DNA of 15,264 nt from a virus (Duplodnaviria > Heunggongvirae > Uroviricota > Caudoviricetes), in IMG/VR virus record IMGVR_UViG_2645727868_000018; one strand, written 5' to 3'. Made by a program: the position numbers and the translations under genes. Shown in pieces: positions 2,774 to 13,301 of this stretch (its first letter is position 1; each line of letters starts with the position of its first letter). Below the pieces are notes generated by a model. That model ran no database searches. It was not told where the DNA came from and saw nothing but the letters and a program-made list of their open reading frames with translations.

Positions 2774-3342
2774 TAGCGTATCCTCAGTGACCGTTCGCCG
2801 CGTTCCAGATGTGCGCCTGGTACCGGGTTTAATAACTCGGCTGGTGGTGTTTCTCCACGCGCCAGTATTTCGGCGGCAACCGCCTCCGCAGATTCAATCA
2901 CTTCTTTAATGGCTCGCTTGTTTGGTGTAATAACCGTTTCTACATCAACAAGTGACACGCCCTCATACTCATCCGGGATCTTATCTTTGCTATCGATAAT
3001 TACCCGGATAGCCCCCTGTGCATCAGTAAATGTGTTTTTTGCGGTTTTCAGTTTATCCAGGCCAGCAGCTTGCAGGCAGGTGAGCATATGCTTTCGAATT
3101 GCTTTTTCCTTGCCTTCAAAGGACGTCTTACGGGTTGCCAGGCGAGACATTTCTTCAGCGCAGGTATTGGCATTGCCCTGTAAATTACGGCAGATGACCA
3201 TCATGGCGTCCAGTTTGTCTCCCAGTTCTCCTTCCATGCCTTCAAGCGTGTCGGCGATCATCTCTGGCGTCAGTTCATCGGCGGTTTCTAACAGGTCAAT
3301 CAGACTGGCATATTCTTTTGCAATAGCGATAGCAGTGCTCAT
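2773..3342 (-). CDS. Gp157-family phage protein (Sipho_Gp157-like), usually found in recombination modules
   Basis: 189-aa acidic, coiled-coil-rich protein. N-terminus ...LIDLLETADELTPEMIADTLEGMEGELGDKLDAMMVICRNLQGNANTCAEEMSRLATRK... and ...IPDEYEGV... match the recalled profile of the Gp157 family. SD AGGAG precedes the ATG at 3342; the gene is adjacent to a Sak/Rad52-like gene as usual for this family. Confidence 0.6.
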   Translation of the reverse strand: MSTAIAIAKEYASLIDLLETADELTPEMIADTLEGMEGELGDKLDAMMVICRNLQGNANTCAEEMSRLATRKTSFEGKEKAIRKHMLTCLQAAGLDKLKTAKNTFTDAQGAIRVIIDSKDKIPDEYEGVSLVDVETVITPNKRAIKEVIESAEAVAAEILARGETPPAELLNPVPGAHLERGERSLRIR

Positions 3343-5555
3343 GCTGTTTGCTCCTGTGCAGCGGTAAGGGCGGCGAGGCGTTCAGTTTTAATGTCGGTGA
3401 TACGGCGCAGACGTGATCCCAGATACGATGAATATTCTTTATCGCCTTTGGTTTCCGCTGCTTTCCTGTGTACATCCACTTCGCGGGCGATGAGGCCAAA
3501 TACCTTGTTTACTTCGTTGGCGGTTACCGCGGCGGCCAGCGTATTGGCAACGTTGATAAGCTTCTCATCCAGTTCCTTACGCAGACGGGTAGCATCTTCC
3601 GCATTCTCGCTGGCATTCTTGATATCAAACTCAGCTTTATTCCTCTGGCGGTATTCCGGATTGTCGTACAGGCCCATGAAAATATCGGCGCTGAATCCGA
3701 GAGGGGATAGCGCTTTCTTAACAGCATCCGTCCAGGATTTCTTCGGTGCTTCGCCGTCGCTTGTTGGTCCGTATTTAGTGTCGTAGATATAAGGTGTGCA
3801 TCCGTAAGCCTCGGACTCACCGCGTACCCCATTCAATATGTACCAGACTCTCACTTTCATGGTGTGGTGCATTTCACATAGGTACCCGCCAACACCGTCT
3901 TGAATCAGATCCCATTCTATTTTTTCACCAACCTGTTTTTTGCGAACTATTGGTGCGCCTTTATCAAAGCGCTCCTCCAGCACCTCTACCCCCCAGCCAA
4001 TACCAAATGGCCCAAATTCGCGAGTCGCTTTCATCGCTATATAAGTGCCGTTGATGGATGTGCCGCCGCCATTCTGAGAGAAAGCACTGGTGAAGCGCTC
4101 ATCGGTTTTGAATACGTTCTTCCACAATGCCAGGTTATCCGTGTCATCTGAGTCCTTTAACTCCGTTTCGATAGCTGAGATTGCATTCTGCCGCTTGTGC
4201 TCTTCGGCATGGATCCGCTCAACCAGCGCGTCAACGTTCTGCACCAGATCCTTTACCTGCTCGCTAAGTTGTTCTTGTGGAGGAGTCTCTTCTGCCAGGG
4301 TAATAGCTGCAGGTTCCCTCTGTGATACGGCGTTATTTTCAGGTACGTCATACACATGGCGAGGCGTGACAAACTGCTCACGCAACTGCTGCAAACTACG
4401 TTCTCCAGCATTTGCAGCTTCGCTTTTTTCGCCCTGATTTGAGGGTGTTTCTGACATCATCCCATCAATTGAGAATCGTCCGCCGCCGTGGTTGGTGACT
4501 TTTACATCATCCTTGGGTGCTGCTTCCTTTGGCTTCTCTTCAACAGCATTTGCATCACGCTGCCCGTTAGCTTGCAGCCAGTTGTCGATGTGACTGCGCA
4601 GGGATTGTGGGAAGTGGTACGTGTCTTTTGCGGGGGCGCTCTGAATAACACCGAATACTGATGCGCGGTCATAGGCAAGGATCTGATCCGTTGTGCGCAA
4701 GGCCATTGACCAGCGTTTAAAATCTTCCCTGTCCTGACTGATTATTTCGTCTGCCGCTTTCAGGATGCTGGGGGTGATTTTTTCCGGGGCAACAGGTAAC
4801 AGGGCGCAGGCAATTTCACGATCCAGAGTGGCGTGAGTCTGTTTGTAAGGACGTGCGGATGCTGTTTCTGGTTTTACCTCCGGCAGCATTTCATCTCGTT
4901 TACCGGGATTCTCTACCCATTTTTTTATAAATTTGGAGATAGTCCAACTGGTCGGGTTTTGTTCCTGGGTATCGCAACTTGCCAAAATTGCATGTACCAG
5001 ATTATTCAATCCAGCAATATGCATGTACTCGATGGGCTTACACGCCACCATGGCATCAAGAACGATGCGGTTAAACGCGTCAACCTCATCCTCACTGTCA
5101 GTATCACTGTTATCGAGCATCTCCAGGTATTCACGCGTCTGCACAAGCAATTCACTGTCGACTTCGTTGGCGTCGTGGCTGAACAGCAGAACGGCGGCGA
5201 ATCGTTCACGAGCCGGCAGTTTCATCAGGTCGCTAACCTGTGAGATATCTGCTGAACTGCAATCTGAATCAACAGGAGTGTTAACTACCCATTTTTCGCC
5301 ATCAAAACTGTGTTCTGTGGCAAACGTCTCATCAAACTCACCGACGCCTGGGCGCGGTTGGCCCGGGGCATCTTCCCAGATTTTAGGTTTGAAATAGTTG
5401 TCGCCGTGGTCAGGGTAGGCTTCCCACAATTTGCCGATGATGATGTTCTCGGCAACTTTTTTGTTAGGGGCGGCGATGGCGATGGCCAGCGCCGGGATCG
5501 CGCCGTTTTTGAGCGCGCCTTTTTTCGCTTCTAACAAGCCGTTAAAAATGGTCAT
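3339..5555 (-). CDS. Large phage protein (738 aa) with Rad52/Sak-type single-strand annealing domain in its C-terminal half; N-terminal ~450 aa of unknown function
   Basis: Uninterrupted 2217-nt ORF with the motif GAGGAAAGACC-A-ATG at its start. Residues ~480-640 (GGYLCEMHH...APKKSWTDAVKKALSPLGFSADIFMGLYDN) resemble the conserved core of Rad52/Sak annealing proteins (compare Rad52 KKSAVTDALKRSLRGFG and Sak SSALKRCASSGFGIGRYLYDL, both recalled from memory). Acidic low-complexity linker (DNSDTDSEDEVD) and a C-terminal coiled coil. Confidence 0.55.
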   Translation of the reverse strand: MTIFNGLLEAKKGALKNGAIPALAIAIAAPNKKVAENIIIGKLWEAYPDHGDNYFKPKIWEDAPGQPRPGVGEFDETFATEHSFDGEKWVVNTPVDSDCSSADISQVSDLMKLPARERFAAVLLFSHDANEVDSELLVQTREYLEMLDNSDTDSEDEVDAFNRIVLDAMVACKPIEYMHIAGLNNLVHAILASCDTQEQNPTSWTISKFIKKWVENPGKRDEMLPEVKPETASARPYKQTHATLDREIACALLPVAPEKITPSILKAADEIISQDREDFKRWSMALRTTDQILAYDRASVFGVIQSAPAKDTYHFPQSLRSHIDNWLQANGQRDANAVEEKPKEAAPKDDVKVTNHGGGRFSIDGMMSETPSNQGEKSEAANAGERSLQQLREQFVTPRHVYDVPENNAVSQREPAAITLAEETPPQEQLSEQVKDLVQNVDALVERIHAEEHKRQNAISAIETELKDSDDTDNLALWKNVFKTDERFTSAFSQNGGGTSINGTYIAMKATREFGPFGIGWGVEVLEERFDKGAPIVRKKQVGEKIEWDLIQDGVGGYLCEMHHTMKVRVWYILNGVRGESEAYGCTPYIYDTKYGPTSDGEAPKKSWTDAVKKALSPLGFSADIFMGLYDNPEYRQRNKAEFDIKNASENAEDATRLRKELDEKLINVANTLAAAVTANEVNKVFGLIAREVDVHRKAAETKGDKEYSSYLGSRLRRITDIKTERLAALTAAQEQTA

Positions 5556-5585
5556 TGGTCTTTCCTCATTACAGGTCAGTGGTTT

Positions 5586-5906
5586 TTAGTAGGGGAGCTC
5601 ATCGGTATCTGGCGTGTATTCGATGCAAAGTAACTGCTGGATTTTGTCATCGATAGCAGCAATACGCTGTTGGGCGTCGGCGACTGTTTTCTGTTTTTGT
5701 TCACGCAGTTGCTCGACCTGTAAACCGATGATGTCGATTGGCTCGGGCTGGTTAACGGTAATTTCAATTTCGCGGCTTTCCAGAAGGATGTACCTGTCTG
5801 GAAAATTTTTTGACATATCAACAGTCGCAACAAGCAGCTTTTCGTGGCTGAAAGTTGAAGTTGCATAATGAATAAAGAGTGTTACTGGGATGGTGCGCGC
5901 TTCCAT
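5586..5906 (-). CDS. Hypothetical protein (106 aa), first gene of the leftward early operon
   Basis: Strong SD (AAGGAG) 7 nt before the ATG at 5906; its stop lies 30 nt upstream of the 738-aa gene start. No recognisable family; not arginine-rich, so not N-like. Confidence 0.5.
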   Translation of the reverse strand: MEARTIPVTLFIHYATSTFSHEKLLVATVDMSKNFPDRYILLESREIEITVNQPEPIDIIGLQVEQLREQKQKTVADAQQRIAAIDDKIQQLLCIEYTPDTDELPY

Positions 5907-6303
5907 AGCGACTCCTTGGTAATGTATACTCAGAGCCGATCAGCGAATATTGATCAGCTTCCATAGCGTCAGTGTCGTTGGTCTTTCCTCATCACAAGTT
6001 TGGTCACTTGTGATAAATCCGAATGGTTTGGTCGCCGTTCGGGGTAACTGGCCCGCCTTGTGCGGGTCTTTTGCTATCTAAAGGGTGCCGGTTACGTTTC
6101 CGGCGTCGTTATGTTTCCATTACGACCGTACAGGGCTGGTCAGGCCCGGGCTGGTCTTTCCTGTTTTGAGCTGGTCAGGCTCATGGTCAACGCTGGTCAG
6201 GCGTGGTACTTCCTCCGGTCTTTCCCTGGTGTCACGCTGCGGGTTTGGCCTCTCCTGTTGGGGACTCAGGCACAGCGATAAAACCTGGCTGTGTGAAAAA
6301 ATG

Positions 6304-6323
6304 GCCCATCGTGCGGACTGGGC
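6304..6323 (-). terminator. Terminator-like hairpin plus U6 on the minus strand, 3' of the tRNA-like fragment
   Basis: Minus-strand reading GCCCA-gtccgcacga-TGGGC followed by CA-TTTTTT (plus 6296-6301 is AAAAAA). Short 5-bp stem with a 10-nt loop, so only a weak candidate. Confidence 0.25.
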
Positions 6324-6344
6324 AAAGACTAAACACAGCAAATT

Positions 6345-6372
6345 GATGATGGGCGCCCGGAATCGAACCGGG
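6345..6372 (-). other. tRNA-like fragment (T-arm plus acceptor-like 3' strand) inside the leftward leader
   Basis: Minus-strand sequence CCCGG-TTCGATT-CCGGG-CGCCCAT has a perfect 5-bp T-stem and canonical T-loop. No complementary acceptor 5' strand, D-arm or CCA could be found, so it is not a complete tRNA gene. Confidence 0.3.
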
Positions 6373-6769
6373 TAACGGGCAGGGAGTTCCCGTTAAACAC
6401 CTGTTCACCACAACCGGGAGCGCACTCCGCCATTTCAAAATTTAACGACAAAGCTCAAAGTTGAGTCGATGAAGTGCGCTCTCGTGTTGTAGCCAGGACT
6501 CTTCCCTGGTGGTCACACCGTATCGCCTTGATGGTGAATCAATCGCTCATACCTGGCTGTGGCTTGCACATTCCGGCTACCTGCTATGGAGACAACGCGT
6601 TAAGGCTCCGCTTCCATCCAGACCGCTTCGACACATGTGCCATATGCCGGTGAAGTCTTTCCCTCTGTCACCGTGTTGGCGCCGACGCGCAAAATTTGGT
6701 GCCGTCTTTCCGGCTGTCAGAACGTGTTTCTGAACAACTGCCGCTGGGTAAGCGTTGTTGATGAAAGTG

Positions 6770-6798
6770 ACTTTACAATTTGTATTTGTAATGGTCAA
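6770..6798 (-). promoter_or_regulatory. Candidate leftward early promoter (pL-like) with embedded operator motif
   Basis: On the minus strand: -35 TTGACC (rc of 6793-6798), 17-bp spacer ATTACAAATACAAATTG, -10 TAAAGT (rc of 6770-6775). The spacer and flank carry the same ATTTGTA-type motif as the cI/cro operator region (ATAATTTGTA also at 6811-6820). Confidence 0.4.
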
Positions 6799-6916
6799 TG
6801 TGTTTTTAAAAAATAATTTGTAGTGAGGGGCAAAAAAATATTCACTGTGTAAAGGTGTTTTTGTGTTAGGGGAAAGTTGCATGCCAGCAGCGGCTGGCCT
6901 GGAAATTTGAACTGAA

Positions 6917-7345
6917 CTATTTTGTCTGGTTTTTGGCTTCAAGTAGTTCTTTTAGCAGTAGATCGAAGTGCTCTCTTTTTTCTTTTAGCTCATTGATTAA
7001 TTTATTTTTTTCGCTCTCAGGCAGTCCTCTGAATAGTTGCAGTAGAGCCTGTTCTTGCGGGGTTAGTTCTTGATTGTAATTACCCGGGTGTAGTGTGGAT
7101 TCATCCAAATATTCCCCTTCATTCATGAAGAAAAAATGAACAGGGTATCCGGTCACTTTTGCTAGCTTGTCTAATTTATCTTTTCTTGGAGTTACCCCAT
7201 TACACCATGCCTGAACTGATTGAGCCGTAACCCCAATATGGCGAGCTAACTCAGATTGAGACCAGCCTAAGTCTTTTAGAATCCGTTGTAGTCGGCTAGC
7301 AAAAGCCATGTTTTTCGTTTTTGTGTTCATACCGTAAGGATACAA
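6917..7345 (-). CDS. Phage repressor, XRE-family HTH, without S24 peptidase domain (CI/RacR-like)
   Basis: 142-aa ORF divergent from the cro-like gene. HTH motif ...LGWSQSELARHIGVTAQSVQAWCNG... in the N-terminal part; the C-terminal ~60 aa is a charged coiled coil with no Ser/Lys autopeptidase motifs. Start uncertain (Met at 7345, 7330 or 7309); the transcript may be leaderless. Confidence 0.8.
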   Translation of the reverse strand: MYPYGMNTKTKNMAFASRLQRILKDLGWSQSELARHIGVTAQSVQAWCNGVTPRKDKLDKLAKVTGYPVHFFFMNEGEYLDESTLHPGNYNQELTPQEQALLQLFRGLPESEKNKLINELKEKREHFDLLLKELLEAKNQTK

Positions 7346-7428
7346 GGTTTAATTGTAGGGAGCATTGCAAATATAATTTGTAATTACAGTTATTGTTTGT
7401 AATGATGACGCGGACACAAGGAGTCCAT
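7346..7428. promoter_or_regulatory. Divergent immunity promoter/operator region (pRM-like leftward, pR-like rightward)
   Basis: Near-palindromes ATTGCAAAT-ATA-ATTTGTAAT (7364-7384) and ATTACA-N9-TGTAAT (7383-7403). Consensus -10 TATAAT at 7372-7377 on the plus strand; TACAAT (rc of 7352-7357) lies about 7 nt before the repressor ATG on the minus strand. Confidence 0.5.
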
Positions 7429-7659
7429 ATGGATAAACAACTGCAAGACAAAATTCTTTCCGTAATGAGTCAATCCGAGTTAGGGCGGCGATTAGGGAAA
7501 AAACCACAAACGGTAAGCCTCTGGTTCAAAGGACGGGTTCCCGGTGAAGAGGTTTTGCGCACATCTGAAGCTCTTGAATGGCGCGTGACCCCTCATGATC
7601 TTAGACCGGATCTTTACCCAAACCCAGATGACAGCTTGCCTAAAACGGAAGCAGCTTAA
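7429..7659 (+). CDS. Cro-like regulator (YdaS/Cro family HTH)
   Basis: Start placed at the ATG at 7429 with SD AAGGAG 7 nt upstream (the ORF track offers 7393). The translation MDKQLQDKILSVMSQSELGRRLGKKPQTVSLWFKGRVP...DLRPDLYP shows the HTH and the LRPD motif shared with Rac YdaS-type Cro proteins. Confidence 0.75.
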   Translation: MDKQLQDKILSVMSQSELGRRLGKKPQTVSLWFKGRVPGEEVLRTSEALEWRVTPHDLRPDLYPNPDDSLPKTEAA

Positions 7660-8194: not shown

Positions 8195-8233
8195 GCGCCT
8201 GACCAGCGTTTAACTTATACCGAGGAAAGACCG

Positions 8234-8458
8234 ATGTTAAGACATATTGACCGCATTACCTGGCGTAACGGCTGGCACCTGAATGGACGCCCGGCACATG
8301 TTGCAGAGATCCGCCCCATATTCGATGGCCGCGTCGCAGCTGCACGTTCTGTATGGGAAAAGTACGAAGAAGAAAAAGCGAAACTGCGTGAGCAAAATCT
8401 CTCTGGCGCTGCCTATGAGGCTGGCTGTCGCGTTCTCTCAGAGGCTTTGGGCATATGA
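8234..8458 (+). CDS. Hypothetical protein (74 aa)
   Basis: Preceded by the conserved motif GAGGAAAGACC-G-ATG. Its stop overlaps the next start (ATGA), consistent with translational coupling to the replication gene. Confidence 0.45.
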   Translation: MLRHIDRITWRNGWHLNGRPAHVAEIRPIFDGRVAAARSVWEKYEEEKAKLREQNLSGAAYEAGCRVLSEALGI

Positions 8459-10615: not shown

Positions 10616-10653
10616 CCACGCCTGACCAGCGTGAAATAACCGAGGAAAGACCA

Positions 10654-11064
10654 ATGACCACCACTCCAGGCAAATTAGAGTACCCGTCGGACAAAGGACA
10701 CATAGACGACGGTAAAAACTATCTCGACGTCATTTTGTGGAATATGAACGTCGGGCCACGTGCGCGCACTCGCGCGGTTTTTGTGCCAAGACCTAAAGCA
10801 GGCAATTTTTCAACCCCTGCTAAGCCTGCCCGTCAGGCATCCGTAGCCGCAGCGCCAGCAGTGAAACGTAAGGGCAAAACGCACACCGGGATCGCGATTC
10901 GCAGAAATGGTGAGCGGCAAGTGAAACTCCACGAAACAGCGACAACCTGGTGTGCCTCACCGCATGAAACTTACGACAAGATAACCGGGCAGCGCATTGG
11001 CGCGCCTGGTCGCTGCCGCCTGCTGCTGAGTTCCATCACTCCGATAGCAAAGAAAGGGGCGTGA
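10654..11064 (+). CDS. Hypothetical protein (136 aa), basic and Pro/Ala-rich
   Basis: Preceded by the conserved junction cassette CGCCTGACCAGCG-N9-GAGGAAAGACC-A-ATG; no recognisable family. Confidence 0.5.
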   Translation: MTTTPGKLEYPSDKGHIDDGKNYLDVILWNMNVGPRARTRAVFVPRPKAGNFSTPAKPARQASVAAAPAVKRKGKTHTGIAIRRNGERQVKLHETATTWCASPHETYDKITGQRIGAPGRCRLLLSSITPIAKKGA

Positions 11065-12241: not shown

Positions 12242-12270
12242 TTGACTTAGAAAAAGTCCGGGGCTATAGT
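12242..12270 (+). promoter_or_regulatory. Near-consensus sigma70 promoter (TTGACT, 17 bp, TATAGT) upstream of the antirepressor leader
   Basis: Seen in sequence: -35 TTGACT at 12242-12247, 17-bp spacer, -10 TATAGT at 12265-12270. Located directly after the stop of the 73-aa ORF. Confidence 0.5.
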
Positions 12271-12330
12271 TTCCGCGCAGCCGCAAAATCGGTTGCCGGG
12301 ATTGGCGTCCCGGATATCTAAGTGACGCAT

Positions 12331-12351
12331 AGCCGCGTTAGCGGTTTTTTT
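12331..12351 (+). terminator. Short intrinsic terminator or attenuator (6-bp stem with one G-U pair, 4-nt loop, U7) about 75 nt downstream of the promoter
   Basis: AGCCGC-GTTA-GCGGTT followed by TTTTT (T-run 12345-12351). Preceded by a perfect hairpin CCGGGA-TTGGCG-TCCCGG at 12296-12313. Together with the promoter this defines a short transcript or a leader attenuator about 160 nt ahead of the antirepressor start. Confidence 0.4.
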
Positions 12352-12512
12352 ATGTGTTAGGCACGGCCACATTCGCATTATGGTGGGCTGTGTGGGGGCT
12401 TCTGTGGAAGCGCCGGGTTCACTTAGCCGGTTACGCCAACCCTGCACAGCTCACCACCAGATGATTGGCGTCGCTGGTGGTGATGAAAAAAACACTAAGT
12501 GAGGCCACTGCG

Positions 12513-13301
12513 ATGACAGTCCAAATATCTGCGGAATCCCTTTCTCCGCTACATCATAACCAACTTCCCGTCATCACTACTGAATTGCTTGCCAGTTTGT
12601 ATGGCACGGAAGTAAATGGTATCCAGCAAAACTTCAAGCGCAACATCGCCAGATTTGTCGTAGGAAAGCATTTTTTTAAGCTGGAAGGTAATGAATTACG
12701 CGACTTCAAAAACAGACTGACAGATAGTCAGTCAGTTGCTAAACATACCCGATCCCTCATTCTCTGGACAGAACGCGGCGCAGCTCGCCATGCCAAAATG
12801 CTGGAAACAGAACAGGCCTGGGAAGTTTTCGAAAAGCTGGAAGATTGTTATTTTAGCCAGCGTCCAGAGAGGCGGAGTACAACTACCGATGACCGTACTC
12901 CCTTGCGTGATGCCGTTAATATACTGGTCGGCAAGAAAGGCATGATGTATCCCGATGCCTACACCATGATTCATCAACGCTTCGCCGTCTCTCACATAGA
13001 ACAACTGTCACAGACGCAAATGTTAGAGGCGATTGAATACATCCACTGCCTGCTACTCGATGAAAATCACCCAACCATTCCAGATTTTTCTTTTATCACC
13101 ACTATCAAAAATGGAAAAGTGACCGGGATGCGCCATGTTGCCAAAGGCGAACATCTGATGACCTTTGACGCTTTCAAAGAGATCGCTGAGCGGGCAGGGT
13201 ATCTGGTGATCCACAGCGACAATCTGCGAAGTATGACACTGGATAAATTGATGGTAATGGGGAAAAAGTCGGCTATATCCGTTGCTAATTCAGCATTTTG
13301 A
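12513..13301 (+). CDS. Phage antirepressor-like protein with ORF6N-type N-terminal domain
   Basis: N-terminal region LPVITTELLASLYGTEVNGIQQNFKRNIARFVVGKHFFKLEGNELRDF matches the recalled ORF6N (antirepressor/Rha-like) pattern. Start placed at ATG 12513 (SD GTGAGG, 8-nt spacer); the ORF-track start at 12465 is a TTG inside a hairpin. Confidence 0.65.
   Translation: MTVQISAESLSPLHHNQLPVITTELLASLYGTEVNGIQQNFKRNIARFVVGKHFFKLEGNELRDFKNRLTDSQSVAKHTRSLILWTERGAARHAKMLETEQAWEVFEKLEDCYFSQRPERRSTTTDDRTPLRDAVNILVGKKGMMYPDAYTMIHQRFAVSHIEQLSQTQMLEAIEYIHCLLLDENHPTIPDFSFITTIKNGKVTGMRHVAKGEHLMTFDAFKEIAERAGYLVIHSDNLRSMTLDKLMVMGKKSAISVANSAF

Follow-up and report, generated by a model that had tools for sequence, protein, structure and literature searches.

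The region 5907-6769 of a 15,264-nucleotide (nt) sequence (IMG/VR record IMGVR_UViG_2645727868_000018; hereafter the window, meaning this whole stretch of DNA) is non-coding, and it probably specifies the untranslated, modular RNA leader of a repressor-controlled pL operon, that is, an RNA operon combined with an attenuator, yielding processed RNAs. Read leftward from pL on the minus strand, the region comprises a short 5' leader, a pseudoknotted domain of ~165 nt termed element A, a long irregular stem (module C), a tRNA-like cargo module, a module resembling the 3' part of the small RNA (sRNA) RprA that ends in an intrinsic terminator, and a segment rich in gene-junction motifs. Element A is the head domain of a family of modular RNA arrays in enterobacterial phages; to judge from Rfam 15, the existing annotations and the searchable literature, this domain had not been defined before. 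This architecture is common to P1, mEp460 and Stx2 phages.

A preliminary description made from the letters of the window had noted a GC-rich stretch with no credible open reading frame (ORF) and no N-like antiterminator between a candidate pL promoter and the first leftward gene, and all of these observations held. The G+C content is 0.54-0.56 across 6001-6750, compared with 0.36-0.46 in the flanks. ORFs inside 5907-6769 are short and mutually overlapping only, and the six longest (68-121 amino acids, aa) matched no Pfam or PHROG family. Alignments with relatives reveal frame-breaking insertions and deletions of 1, 2, 4, 7, 8 and 17 nt in the gap, and RefSeq leaves ~1,010 bp without annotation from the 106-aa gene downstream to the helix-turn-helix (HTH) repressor gene upstream. 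A decayed ORF was also considered and is unsupported; no ORF fragment matches any Pfam or PHROG family. The 106-aa product of the first gene (phrog_2479) does not have the arginine-rich N-terminus of lambda N, and none of the 14 window proteins scanned fell into an antitermination-annotated PHROG family, several of them matching families of unknown function.

Promoter scanning of 5500-7500 returned a single sigma-70-like site, TTGACC-17-TAAAGT at 6798-6770 (minus strand), which substantiates the pL-like promoter proposed at about 6770-6798. Its 17-nt spacer encloses the OL operator (TTACAATTTGTATTTGTAA, 6773-6791), a perfect TTACAA-N7-TTGTAA palindrome. Three related copies of the operator occupy the cI/cro gap (7340-7402), bringing the matches to 5 in total versus 0.71 expected. 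The palindrome in the spacer together with the copies between cI and cro therefore indicates that pL is repressor-controlled. Syntenic relatives keep the positions of the −35 and −10 hexamers, whereas the spacer/operator sequence differs. The 5' leader of the pL transcript (6765-6651, minus strand) is predicted by folding to form a UCAGAA/UUCUGA hairpin and two hairpins with GAAAGA loops (6714-6701 and 6665-6652). The stems of the latter two are compensated in relatives (GCCG/CGGC to CCCG/CGGG and GAGG/CUUC to GCGG/CUGC), and the leader itself (6651-6765) is conserved only within the syntenic lineage. Lying ~50 and ~100 nt after the start site, these covarying 4-bp hairpins with a purine-rich loop were weighed as candidates for a lambda-type boxB; the same GGAAAGAC string serves elsewhere as a ribosome-binding site (RBS), and no boxA consensus was recognised by eye in the leader.

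Element A (6650-6487, minus strand; 150-180 nt across copies) folds into four helices (P1, P2, P4 and P6) and two pseudoknots (GCACAU:AUGUGC and CACC:GGUG). In an alignment of 41 diverse copies, 13 base pairs were changed on both sides, amounting to 99 cells versus 4-25 in slid-partner controls, and none of 500 shuffles reached the covariation score of the domain. The CACC:GGUG pseudoknot becomes AACC:GGUU in four aligned sequences, and the same switch recurs in further copies recovered by genome scanning. This covariation favours the internal partner, and the alternative in which UUCACCA of the P4 loop pairs with UGGUGAA of the module junction was rejected. Paired columns contain 102 G-U cells but only 3 A-C cells; the folded strand is therefore the minus strand, the one transcribed from pL. 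A covariance model (R1) scored 6650-6487 at 139 bits over its full length, with all helices and both pseudoknot partners present, and an unfiltered cmsearch of the whole window with R1 found this copy only, the next-best match scoring 8 bits. Some 45 near-invariant, largely unpaired nt are common to copies from unrelated phages, and the near-invariant GGUAGCCGGAAUGUGCAAG is intact in 22 of 23 copies recovered with an independent motif. Covariance analysis across homologues thus bore out a structured RNA, and the Rfam search gave it no family: element A, module C and the leader match no Rfam 15 family, either at the gathering score or at E<=10, the only matches being chance ones and a sub-threshold one to RprA. 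PGAP places no annotation at the element A sites of the genome-scan copies, and a full-text literature search for element A sequence strings or 'RprA-like' phage RNAs returned nothing relevant.

Element A is widespread beyond this lineage. BLAST against phage genomes uncovered a ~170-nt match to unannotated DNA in the unrelated phages SPN1S, Tyrion, SopranoGao and the P1-like SJ46, and an invariant 19-mer from this block, used as the seed for an IMG/VR search, occurs in >120 viral contigs. Scanning genomes with a different motif yielded 23 true copies, 22 of them in assemblies labelled Enterobacterales. The remaining copy (L179, JAIIAN010000430.1) is a top-scoring element A, at 162 bits, and lies on a 1.7-kb contig of a 'Bacillota' metagenome-assembled genome that is probably contaminating or misbinned. 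Element A is also present in P7, D6, cdtI, mEp460, phiV10, TL-2011b and Stx2a/Stx2c-converting phages. The arrangement in mEp460 and Stx2a_1447 is that of the window: cI, pL, element A, module C, cargo, terminator and the first early-left gene. In P1 (NC_005856.1, L187), element A (71010-71215, 134 bits) takes up most of the unannotated 286-bp gap between trnI and ban in the C1-controlled ban operon, right after trnI and ~2.3 kb downstream of Pban. The P1 record also contains a 'dicF-like region' (68791-68892) at the start of the ban operon, hence in the same operon as element A. One copy each was found in the stretches of mEp460, Stx2a_1447 and P1 that were searched.

The position of element A raises an alternative for its role, namely that it is a cis-acting, protein-independent antiterminator, an analogue rather than a homologue of the put RNAs of phage HK022, which would replace N/nutL in this phage group, fold on the nascent pL transcript, bind the elongating RNA polymerase and carry it past the terminator at 6304-6323 and later ones. 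Indeed, element A is promoter-proximal and stands ahead of a conserved terminator that precedes every early-left gene, an arrangement shared by mEp460 and Stx2a_1447, and in some loci it starts within ~10 nt of a promoter −10 hexamer. Among 78 non-redundant cases, the same-strand gene just upstream encodes a Peptidase_S24 domain in 42 and an HTH_3 domain in 39, which marks CI-type (CI/LexA-type autocleaving) repressors. The first genes downstream are diverse, and no antitermination family is annotated among the 25 commonest downstream families listed or among the window proteins scanned. Furthermore, ~45 near-invariant nt and a restriction to Enterobacterales would fit binding to a conserved host machine. 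On the other hand, element A is single, with no copy at pR, is unlike put in size and fold, and is unmatched in HK022. It also stands where it serves no operon leader, as in P1 and in the tRNA-Arg unit of epsilon15-like phages, and an mEp460-type RNA that ends at the array terminator accumulates in spite of element A upstream. We consider this antiterminator role rather unlikely, and its boldest extension less likely still; this would make element A a new class of host-machinery-binding RNA that reprograms RNA polymerase, independently of N and analogously to put, in many temperate enterobacterial phages (Stx2-converting, mEp460/SfV-like and P1), with RprA sharing ancestry with the terminal module.

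Downstream of element A, module C (6490-6410, minus strand) forms a long irregular stem, ACAAC.CG.AGAGCGCACUUC paired with GGAGUGCGCUC.CCGG.UUGU, that encloses a variable insert. It folds at -33.2 kcal/mol (z = -3.5), with 0 of 200 shuffles as good. The 24 nt that follow element A find a downstream complement at a free energy (dG) <= -20 in 89 of 118 distinct loci, a level attained in 4 of 118 as the mean over shuffled strands. Both element A and module C show covariation. In 26 of 28 same-strand tRNA-Arg genes called by ARAGORN, position +1 of the tRNA is the exact end point of the module C 3' strand (...GCGUU|GUGGCAU). More broadly, 46 of 145 loci have a same-strand tRNA within -400 to +1000 nt of element A, either Arg-UCU downstream or Met/Ile2 with a CAU anticodon upstream; scanning -1500 to +2500 nt of the 145 loci, we found no opposite-strand tRNA called. 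In epsilon15-like phages, element A and tRNA-Arg make up a small unit whose transcription runs against that of the terminase and portal genes.

In the window, the slot behind module C is filled by a lineage-specific tRNA-like cargo module (6411-6346, minus strand) that starts with GUGGUG and continues into a 7-bp hairpin and a T-arm, CCCGG-UUCGAUU-CCGGG. The T-arm (CCCGGTTCGATTCCGGG, 6372-6356, minus strand), earlier noted as tRNA-like, is canonical in sequence, though not part of a called tRNA: ARAGORN and Rfam RF00005 called only the host tRNAs at 701-1002 in the window, and the best match of the T-arm region was a weak one to tRNA-Sec (19 bits, E = 0.93). Its origin as a piece of the neighbouring host tRNAs or of an att core was rejected, the longest common string being 9 nt. 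BUCT708-type relatives have a small hairpin in place of the T-arm module, and other phages fill the slot with tRNA-Arg or with a tRNA-like 'module B' (GUGGUGAAUGCGC...CCACCAC). In module B (mEp460, L188 3253-3390, and many other loci), the loops of two hairpins, GGCUGAU and AGAUCAGCA, show 6 nt of perfect complementarity; judged by eye, its GUGGUG/CACCAC closing stem and this kissing-loop contact make it a candidate tRNA-shaped fold.

These tRNA neighbours bear on a further possibility, that element A and module C together are the product, a stable RNA that acts in trans after its release by RNase P as the 5' leader of a tRNA or tRNA-like RNA and binds a conserved host RNA or protein, for instance of the tRNA-processing or translation machinery, pL contributing early expression only. 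The strictly same-strand tRNA association, the abutment of module C on tRNA +1, the very different contexts of element A, which include independent transcription units, and a pseudoknotted fold with invariant loops all speak for it, and the T4 tRNA-cluster RNAs, ROOL and GOLLD are comparable. However, the study of sRNA-17, an RNA of an mEp460-like prophage to which we return below, detected the downstream part only. We hold such a trans-acting role to be possible, if short of likely; it could coexist with a cis-acting one.

The RprA-3'-like module (6345-6296, minus strand) consists of a single-stranded stretch, UUGCUGUGUUUAGUCUUU, followed by an intrinsic terminator with its stem at 6323-6304 and a U-run at 6301-6296. 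Terminator scanning thereby recovered the terminator-like hairpin that the preliminary description had placed at 6304-6323, and relatives preserve it with three different compensating stems. Rfam RprA (RF00034) aligned to the window at 37.4 bits (E = 0.017), under its gathering score of 70, and only its 3' half was well aligned. The last ~50 nt are homologous, sharing UUGCUGUGU(G/U)UAGUCUUUGCCC, a terminator with the loop CACGA, the U-run and AACA/CACA; the window copy aligns with rprA through the loop CACGA, and the relatives' version matches the annotated rprA of 5424 among 5426 E. coli genomes at 23 of 24 positions. Upstream of ~nt 57 of RprA, the phage sequences do not align, so that the 5' stem-loops and most of the rpoS-pairing region (~nt 33-62) are absent. 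Moreover, the phage module belongs to a long leader, whereas RprA is a free-standing, Rcs-controlled, Hfq-dependent host sRNA. The sequence likeness suggests that the RprA 3' half and the phage terminal module have a common ancestry, or that one was captured from the other in either direction. For this comparison, rprA was taken from NZ_CP019629.1 (L185, 1770372-1770479) and set against the phage loci L002, L093 and L106; GCTGTGTKTAGTC is carried by 28 of the 145 loci. Activation of rpoS by the RprA-like end was examined and rejected, as the unrestricted duplex energies computed with the rpoS leader did not surpass those of shuffled seeds; it is also disfavoured by the location of the shared segment, mostly downstream of the rpoS-pairing region of RprA.

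The terminator could also be part of a switch. On the minus strand, GCCCAUC (6358-6352) can pair with GAUGGGC (6310-6304), the 3' arm of the terminator, and the minimum-free-energy fold of 6407-6296 prefers this pairing over the terminator hairpin, which makes the GCCCAUC segment, found in the window lineage only, a candidate that could act as an anti-terminator. A broader proposal is that the whole leader is a ligand- or factor-sensing attenuator in which element A or the tRNA-like module switches the 6304-6323 terminator by alternative pairing. The predicted preference for GCCCAUC:GAUGGGC would fit it, as would the fold of element A, which with its invariant unpaired nt is aptamer-like. However, the distance and content between element A and a terminator vary widely, many loci have no terminator, the alternative pairing is confined to the window lineage, and no Rfam riboswitch matched, all of which renders a sensing attenuator improbable.

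The reading we prefer, a modular leader that is both RNA operon and attenuator, can be laid out as follows. Once the repressor leaves OL, transcription would start near 6763 and proceed leftward, and the nascent RNA would fold module by module into the GAAAGA-loop leader, element A, module C, the tRNA-like T-arm module and the RprA-type end. Most transcripts would stop at 6304-6323, giving a primary RNA of ~470 nt. This would then be cut at the foot of module C, a point that coincides exactly with the RNase P site in the tRNA-carrying relatives; in the mEp460 type, sRNA-17 begins 3 nt before the corresponding position. The predicted products are a structured RNA from the 5' side, consisting of element A and module C, and a ~115-nt 3' RNA with an sRNA-like, RprA/Hfq-type end, spanning ~6411-6297, or starting from 6414 by analogy with sRNA-17. 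Transcripts that read through would cross ~390 nt of junction-type hairpins to reach the 106-aa gene, the RecE-like exonuclease gene and the rest of the operon.

Several points weigh against this scheme. The rpoS-pairing part of RprA and its hdeD seed hairpin (~nt 31; PMC5861431) are both upstream of the segment shared with the phage, and a seed function of that stretch therefore remains putative. A terminator-like site occurs within 700 nt after element A in only 47 of 117 distinct loci, compared with 18 on the reverse strand, and in P1 element A directly precedes ban with no terminator between them; not every locus thus fits the picture of an RNA operon that carries its own terminator. The processing sites and the stability of the products are extrapolated from another phage with non-homologous cargo, pL is repressed in lysogens, so that the RNAs may be made only after induction, and the model leaves the role of element A unexplained.

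The half of the region beyond the terminator is of a different character, and we read its junction-motif part (within 6295-5907) as leftover or reused gene-junction sequence. The post-terminator segment (6295-6080, minus strand) opens with a CACAGC/GCUGUG hairpin and continues with stacked junction motifs devoid of ORFs. These include the repeat array seen earlier, with CUGACCAGC at 6142-6135, 6177-6170 and 6199-6192 (minus strand) and three copies of the repeat GCTGGTCAGGC, at 6135, 6170 and 6192, as well as GGAAAGAC at 6161-6154 and 6225-6218 (minus strand). Both TGACCAGC (6 occurrences versus 0.44 expected) and GGAAAGAC (11 in the window versus 0.55 expected, always on the strand of local operon transcription) are far above expectation. 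The CUGACCAGC and GGAAAGAC motifs stacked in 6130-6230 also flank real junctions, at 8195-8236 and 10618-10656. Likewise, GAGGAAAGACC-ATG is the RBS of the real genes that start at 2381, 5555, 8234 and 10654, and a CGC-CUGACCA-GCG hairpin lies 12-15 nt upstream of two of these sites. The resulting cassettes of hairpin, spacer, GAGGAAAGACC and ATG (8195-8236, 10618-10656, 5555-5569 and 2381-2394) may mark the boundaries at which modules are exchanged or be recognised by a translational regulator. A CsrA sponge had been envisaged for the GGA motifs and was dropped, since the motif is the junction RBS GAGGAAAGACC-ATG and elsewhere belongs to the covarying GAAAGA-loop hairpins; no search was made for CsrA-type GGA stem-loops.

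Closer to the 106-aa gene, the region again shows conserved pairing. The perfect palindrome at 5991-6014 was confirmed as a 9-bp hairpin on the minus strand (6014-5991; -14.2 kcal/mol, z = -5.0) with the loop GACCAA, directly upstream of GAGGAAAGACC (5990-5980); in relatives its arms are wholly different yet complementary (CCGUAGGG/CCCUACGG; ACAGGG/CCCGU-type) and the loop is kept. On the plus strand, terminator scanning detected a G+C-rich hairpin, GGCCCGCCTTGTGCGGGTC, followed by TTTTGCT (6048-6075, hairpin 6050-6068; -17.6 kcal/mol, z = -3.0). Its stem covaries in L093-type relatives (GCCCAC/GUGGGC), in which the T-run is longer. A terminator on the plus strand here would be consistent with a short antisense transcript covering the leader that precedes the 106-aa gene; the promoter scan gave no convincing plus-strand promoter for an RNA ending at 6075. 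In the initiation region of the 106-aa gene (5990-5907, minus strand), GAGGAAAGACC is followed by ACG, and a Shine-Dalgarno (SD) sequence, AAGGAG, precedes the ATG at 5906. The codon after the junction RBS (5980-5990) is ACG in the window and ATG in relatives, where it opens a 37-aa upstream ORF that is annotated in BUCT708. A 17-nt insertion in the window duplicates CGCUAUGGAAGC within 5907-5990; it repeats the start region of the 106-aa gene, CGCTTCCATAGCG (5898-5917 / 5956-5975), and creates a 48-aa ORF (5964-5818, minus strand) in the frame of the 37-aa coding sequence of BUCT708, with no nearby SD. Nearly all relatives keep the block CUGAUCGGCUCUGAGUAUACAU unchanged, with a single-base difference in each of the E. 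whittamii and L095 copies.

These junction motifs raise the question of whether the region, or at least 6080-6295, is a graveyard of genes deleted by recombination between junction sequences, leaving functionless repeats. Such a history would account for motifs that mark real junctions (2381, 5555, 8234 and 10654), for a number of repeat units that varies among relatives, for the loss of most of 6080-6295 from the E. whittamii copy, and for the ACG in place of ATG after the RBS at 5980-5990. It leaves 6296-6769 unexplained, however, and the covariation, the strand pattern of G-U pairs and the spread across phages show selection on RNA structure; nor does any ORF fragment match a Pfam or PHROG family, and the hairpins within 5991-6075 maintain their pairing by compensation. 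A deletion graveyard is thus conceivable, although the odds are against it. With the leader interpretation we retain the earlier proposal of a long structured, non-coding leader, which is upheld by covariation on the pL strand, by compensated hairpins and a compensated terminator in syntenic prophages and by the occurrence of the core domain after CI genes in many phages, as well as that of a likely source of stable non-coding RNA, an equivalent 3' part having been detected as sRNA-17 in the mEp460-like prophage (PMC7719688). Its suggestion of an HK022 put-type element, taken as family membership, is not supported.

The window is one end of a prophage in E. coli. In order, it contains pgsA, the tRNA genes glyW-cysT-leuZ (701-1002) and the integrase gene, and the prophage is lambdoid and integrated at leuZ. 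The leftward operon encodes a Mu Gam-like protein, a 738-aa RecE-like exonuclease (phrog_2489) and the 106-aa protein; beyond the gap lie the genes for the CI-like HTH repressor (6917-7345, minus strand), for Cro/YdaS-like and CII-like proteins, and for O-like and DnaB-like replication proteins. The 1-kb stretch is present in 475 of 5426 complete E. coli genomes. Among phage genomes, the syntenic relatives BUCT708 and BUCT709 were the sole full-length BLAST matches of the gap, at 72% identity, and megablast of the gap against phage genomes matched nothing. Both BUCT708 (OM816834.1, L002) and BUCT709 (OM816835.1) are syntenic with this prophage through int, DUF4224, Gp157, exonuclease, leader, cI and cro at ~72% DNA identity; they are catalogued as 'Stenotrophomonas' phages, a host assignment that looks doubtful. 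A second RNA locus lies at 12264-12461 (plus strand), where Rfam identified isrK (80 bits), c4-a1b1 (53 bits) and C4 antisense RNA (75 bits) immediately 5' of an ORF6N-domain antirepressor gene (12465-13301); an RNA-controlled antirepressor locus like immI of P1 is thus a further feature of the prophage. The leuZ 3' trailer acts as an sRNA sponge in K-12 (3'ETS-leuZ), and integration of the prophage beside leuZ (701-1002; 1133-2179) may have replaced or displaced this trailer.

Control of the early operons of lambdoid phages is a textbook system, yet N and put are both absent from pL in a large set of such phages, among them Shiga-toxin phages and prophages of many E. coli assemblies, some of which come from human sources. 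The slot of N or put is occupied in them by a conserved RNA array whose first domain bears hallmarks of functional RNA, namely covariation, pseudoknots and invariant loops; this domain sits even in an unannotated gap of the heavily annotated P1 genome. Both terminator passage ahead of recombination and excision genes and the role of tRNA-linked phage RNAs become directly testable. Under the leader reading, the virulence-linked sRNA-17 would arise by processing from the 3' end of a pL leader, its 'promoter' being a structured RNA, and the host sRNA RprA would be tied to a family of phage-borne modules.

Compared with known systems, the region most readily recalls put in HK022, where the RNAs are ~70 nt long, have two stem-loops and come as a putL/putR pair (PMC9378689). 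Like put, the window's RNA is a folded, non-coding, cis-encoded element just downstream of a lambdoid early promoter that is not followed by an N gene, and it lies upstream of terminators that have to be passed for early gene expression. Unlike put, element A is a single domain of ~165 nt with several helices and pseudoknots and no second copy on the pR side, and it also occurs outside operon leaders, as in P1 and epsilon15-like phages. HK022 was absent from the BLAST matches, and R1 scored <=4 bits in HK022 21000-33000. Judged from these comparisons, membership of element A in the HK022 put family is not supported.

StxS offers a mechanistic precedent: it originates as an early-terminated phage transcript from PR', is trimmed by RNase E to an Hfq-binding sRNA, and has antitermination decided at the same terminator (PMC7547250). 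The window's leader likewise would be a promoter-proximal phage transcript stopping at a terminator ahead of an operon; StxS differs in coming from a late promoter, PR', that is constitutive in lysogens, and in having no sequence similarity, no element A and no tRNA-like modules. The C4 (P1/P7) and CI (P4) antisense RNAs and DicF are phage regulatory RNAs excised from longer transcripts of leaders or operons, and some of them have tRNA-like closing stems at which RNase P acts. The window holds a true C4/isrK locus (12264-12461) and the P1 ban operon combines a dicF-like region with element A; within 5907-6769, Rfam matched neither C4 nor DicF. The stable RNAs of the T4 tRNA cluster (species 1/2) and the tRNA-adjacent prophage RNAs ROOL and GOLLD are large, structured and unexplained. 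Element A resembles them as a phage-borne structured non-coding RNA co-oriented with tRNAs, but shares no Rfam sequence or model similarity with them, is much smaller and is restricted to Enterobacterales.

The closest experimental parallel is sRNA-17 of E. coli K1 RS218, a 193-nt RNA of an mEp460-like prophage characterized by RACE (rapid amplification of cDNA ends) and Northern hybridization, whose level is lowered by ArcA and whose deletion improves survival in blood (Song et al. 2020, PMC7719688). Its primers match mEp460 exactly and place sRNA-17 at L188 3251-3443, that is, module B and the array terminator, whereas the 'promoter fragment' of its authors (mEp460 3001-3250) is element A and module C, which had thus gone unrecognised as RNA and was taken as promoter DNA. 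The 5' end of sRNA-17 falls at GUUGUGGUGAA, and the identical string occupies 6414-6404 of the window. Only these first 11 nt, GTTGTGGTGAA, are shared with the window: the slot and the architecture (cI, pL, element A, module C, cargo, terminator) are the same, while the body of sRNA-17, module B with its own terminator, has no homologue in the window, which carries the T-arm module and the RprA-like end instead. Collectively, these comparisons place the region outside put, full RprA, tRNAs and sRNA-17 as families, since it lacks a defining feature of each. The quantitative PCR amplicon of the sRNA-17 study spans from element A to the cargo module, and a precursor joining the two therefore exists in that prophage. 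The detection of sRNA-17 is experimental evidence that a discrete RNA derived from the 3' part of such a leader accumulates in an mEp460-type prophage.

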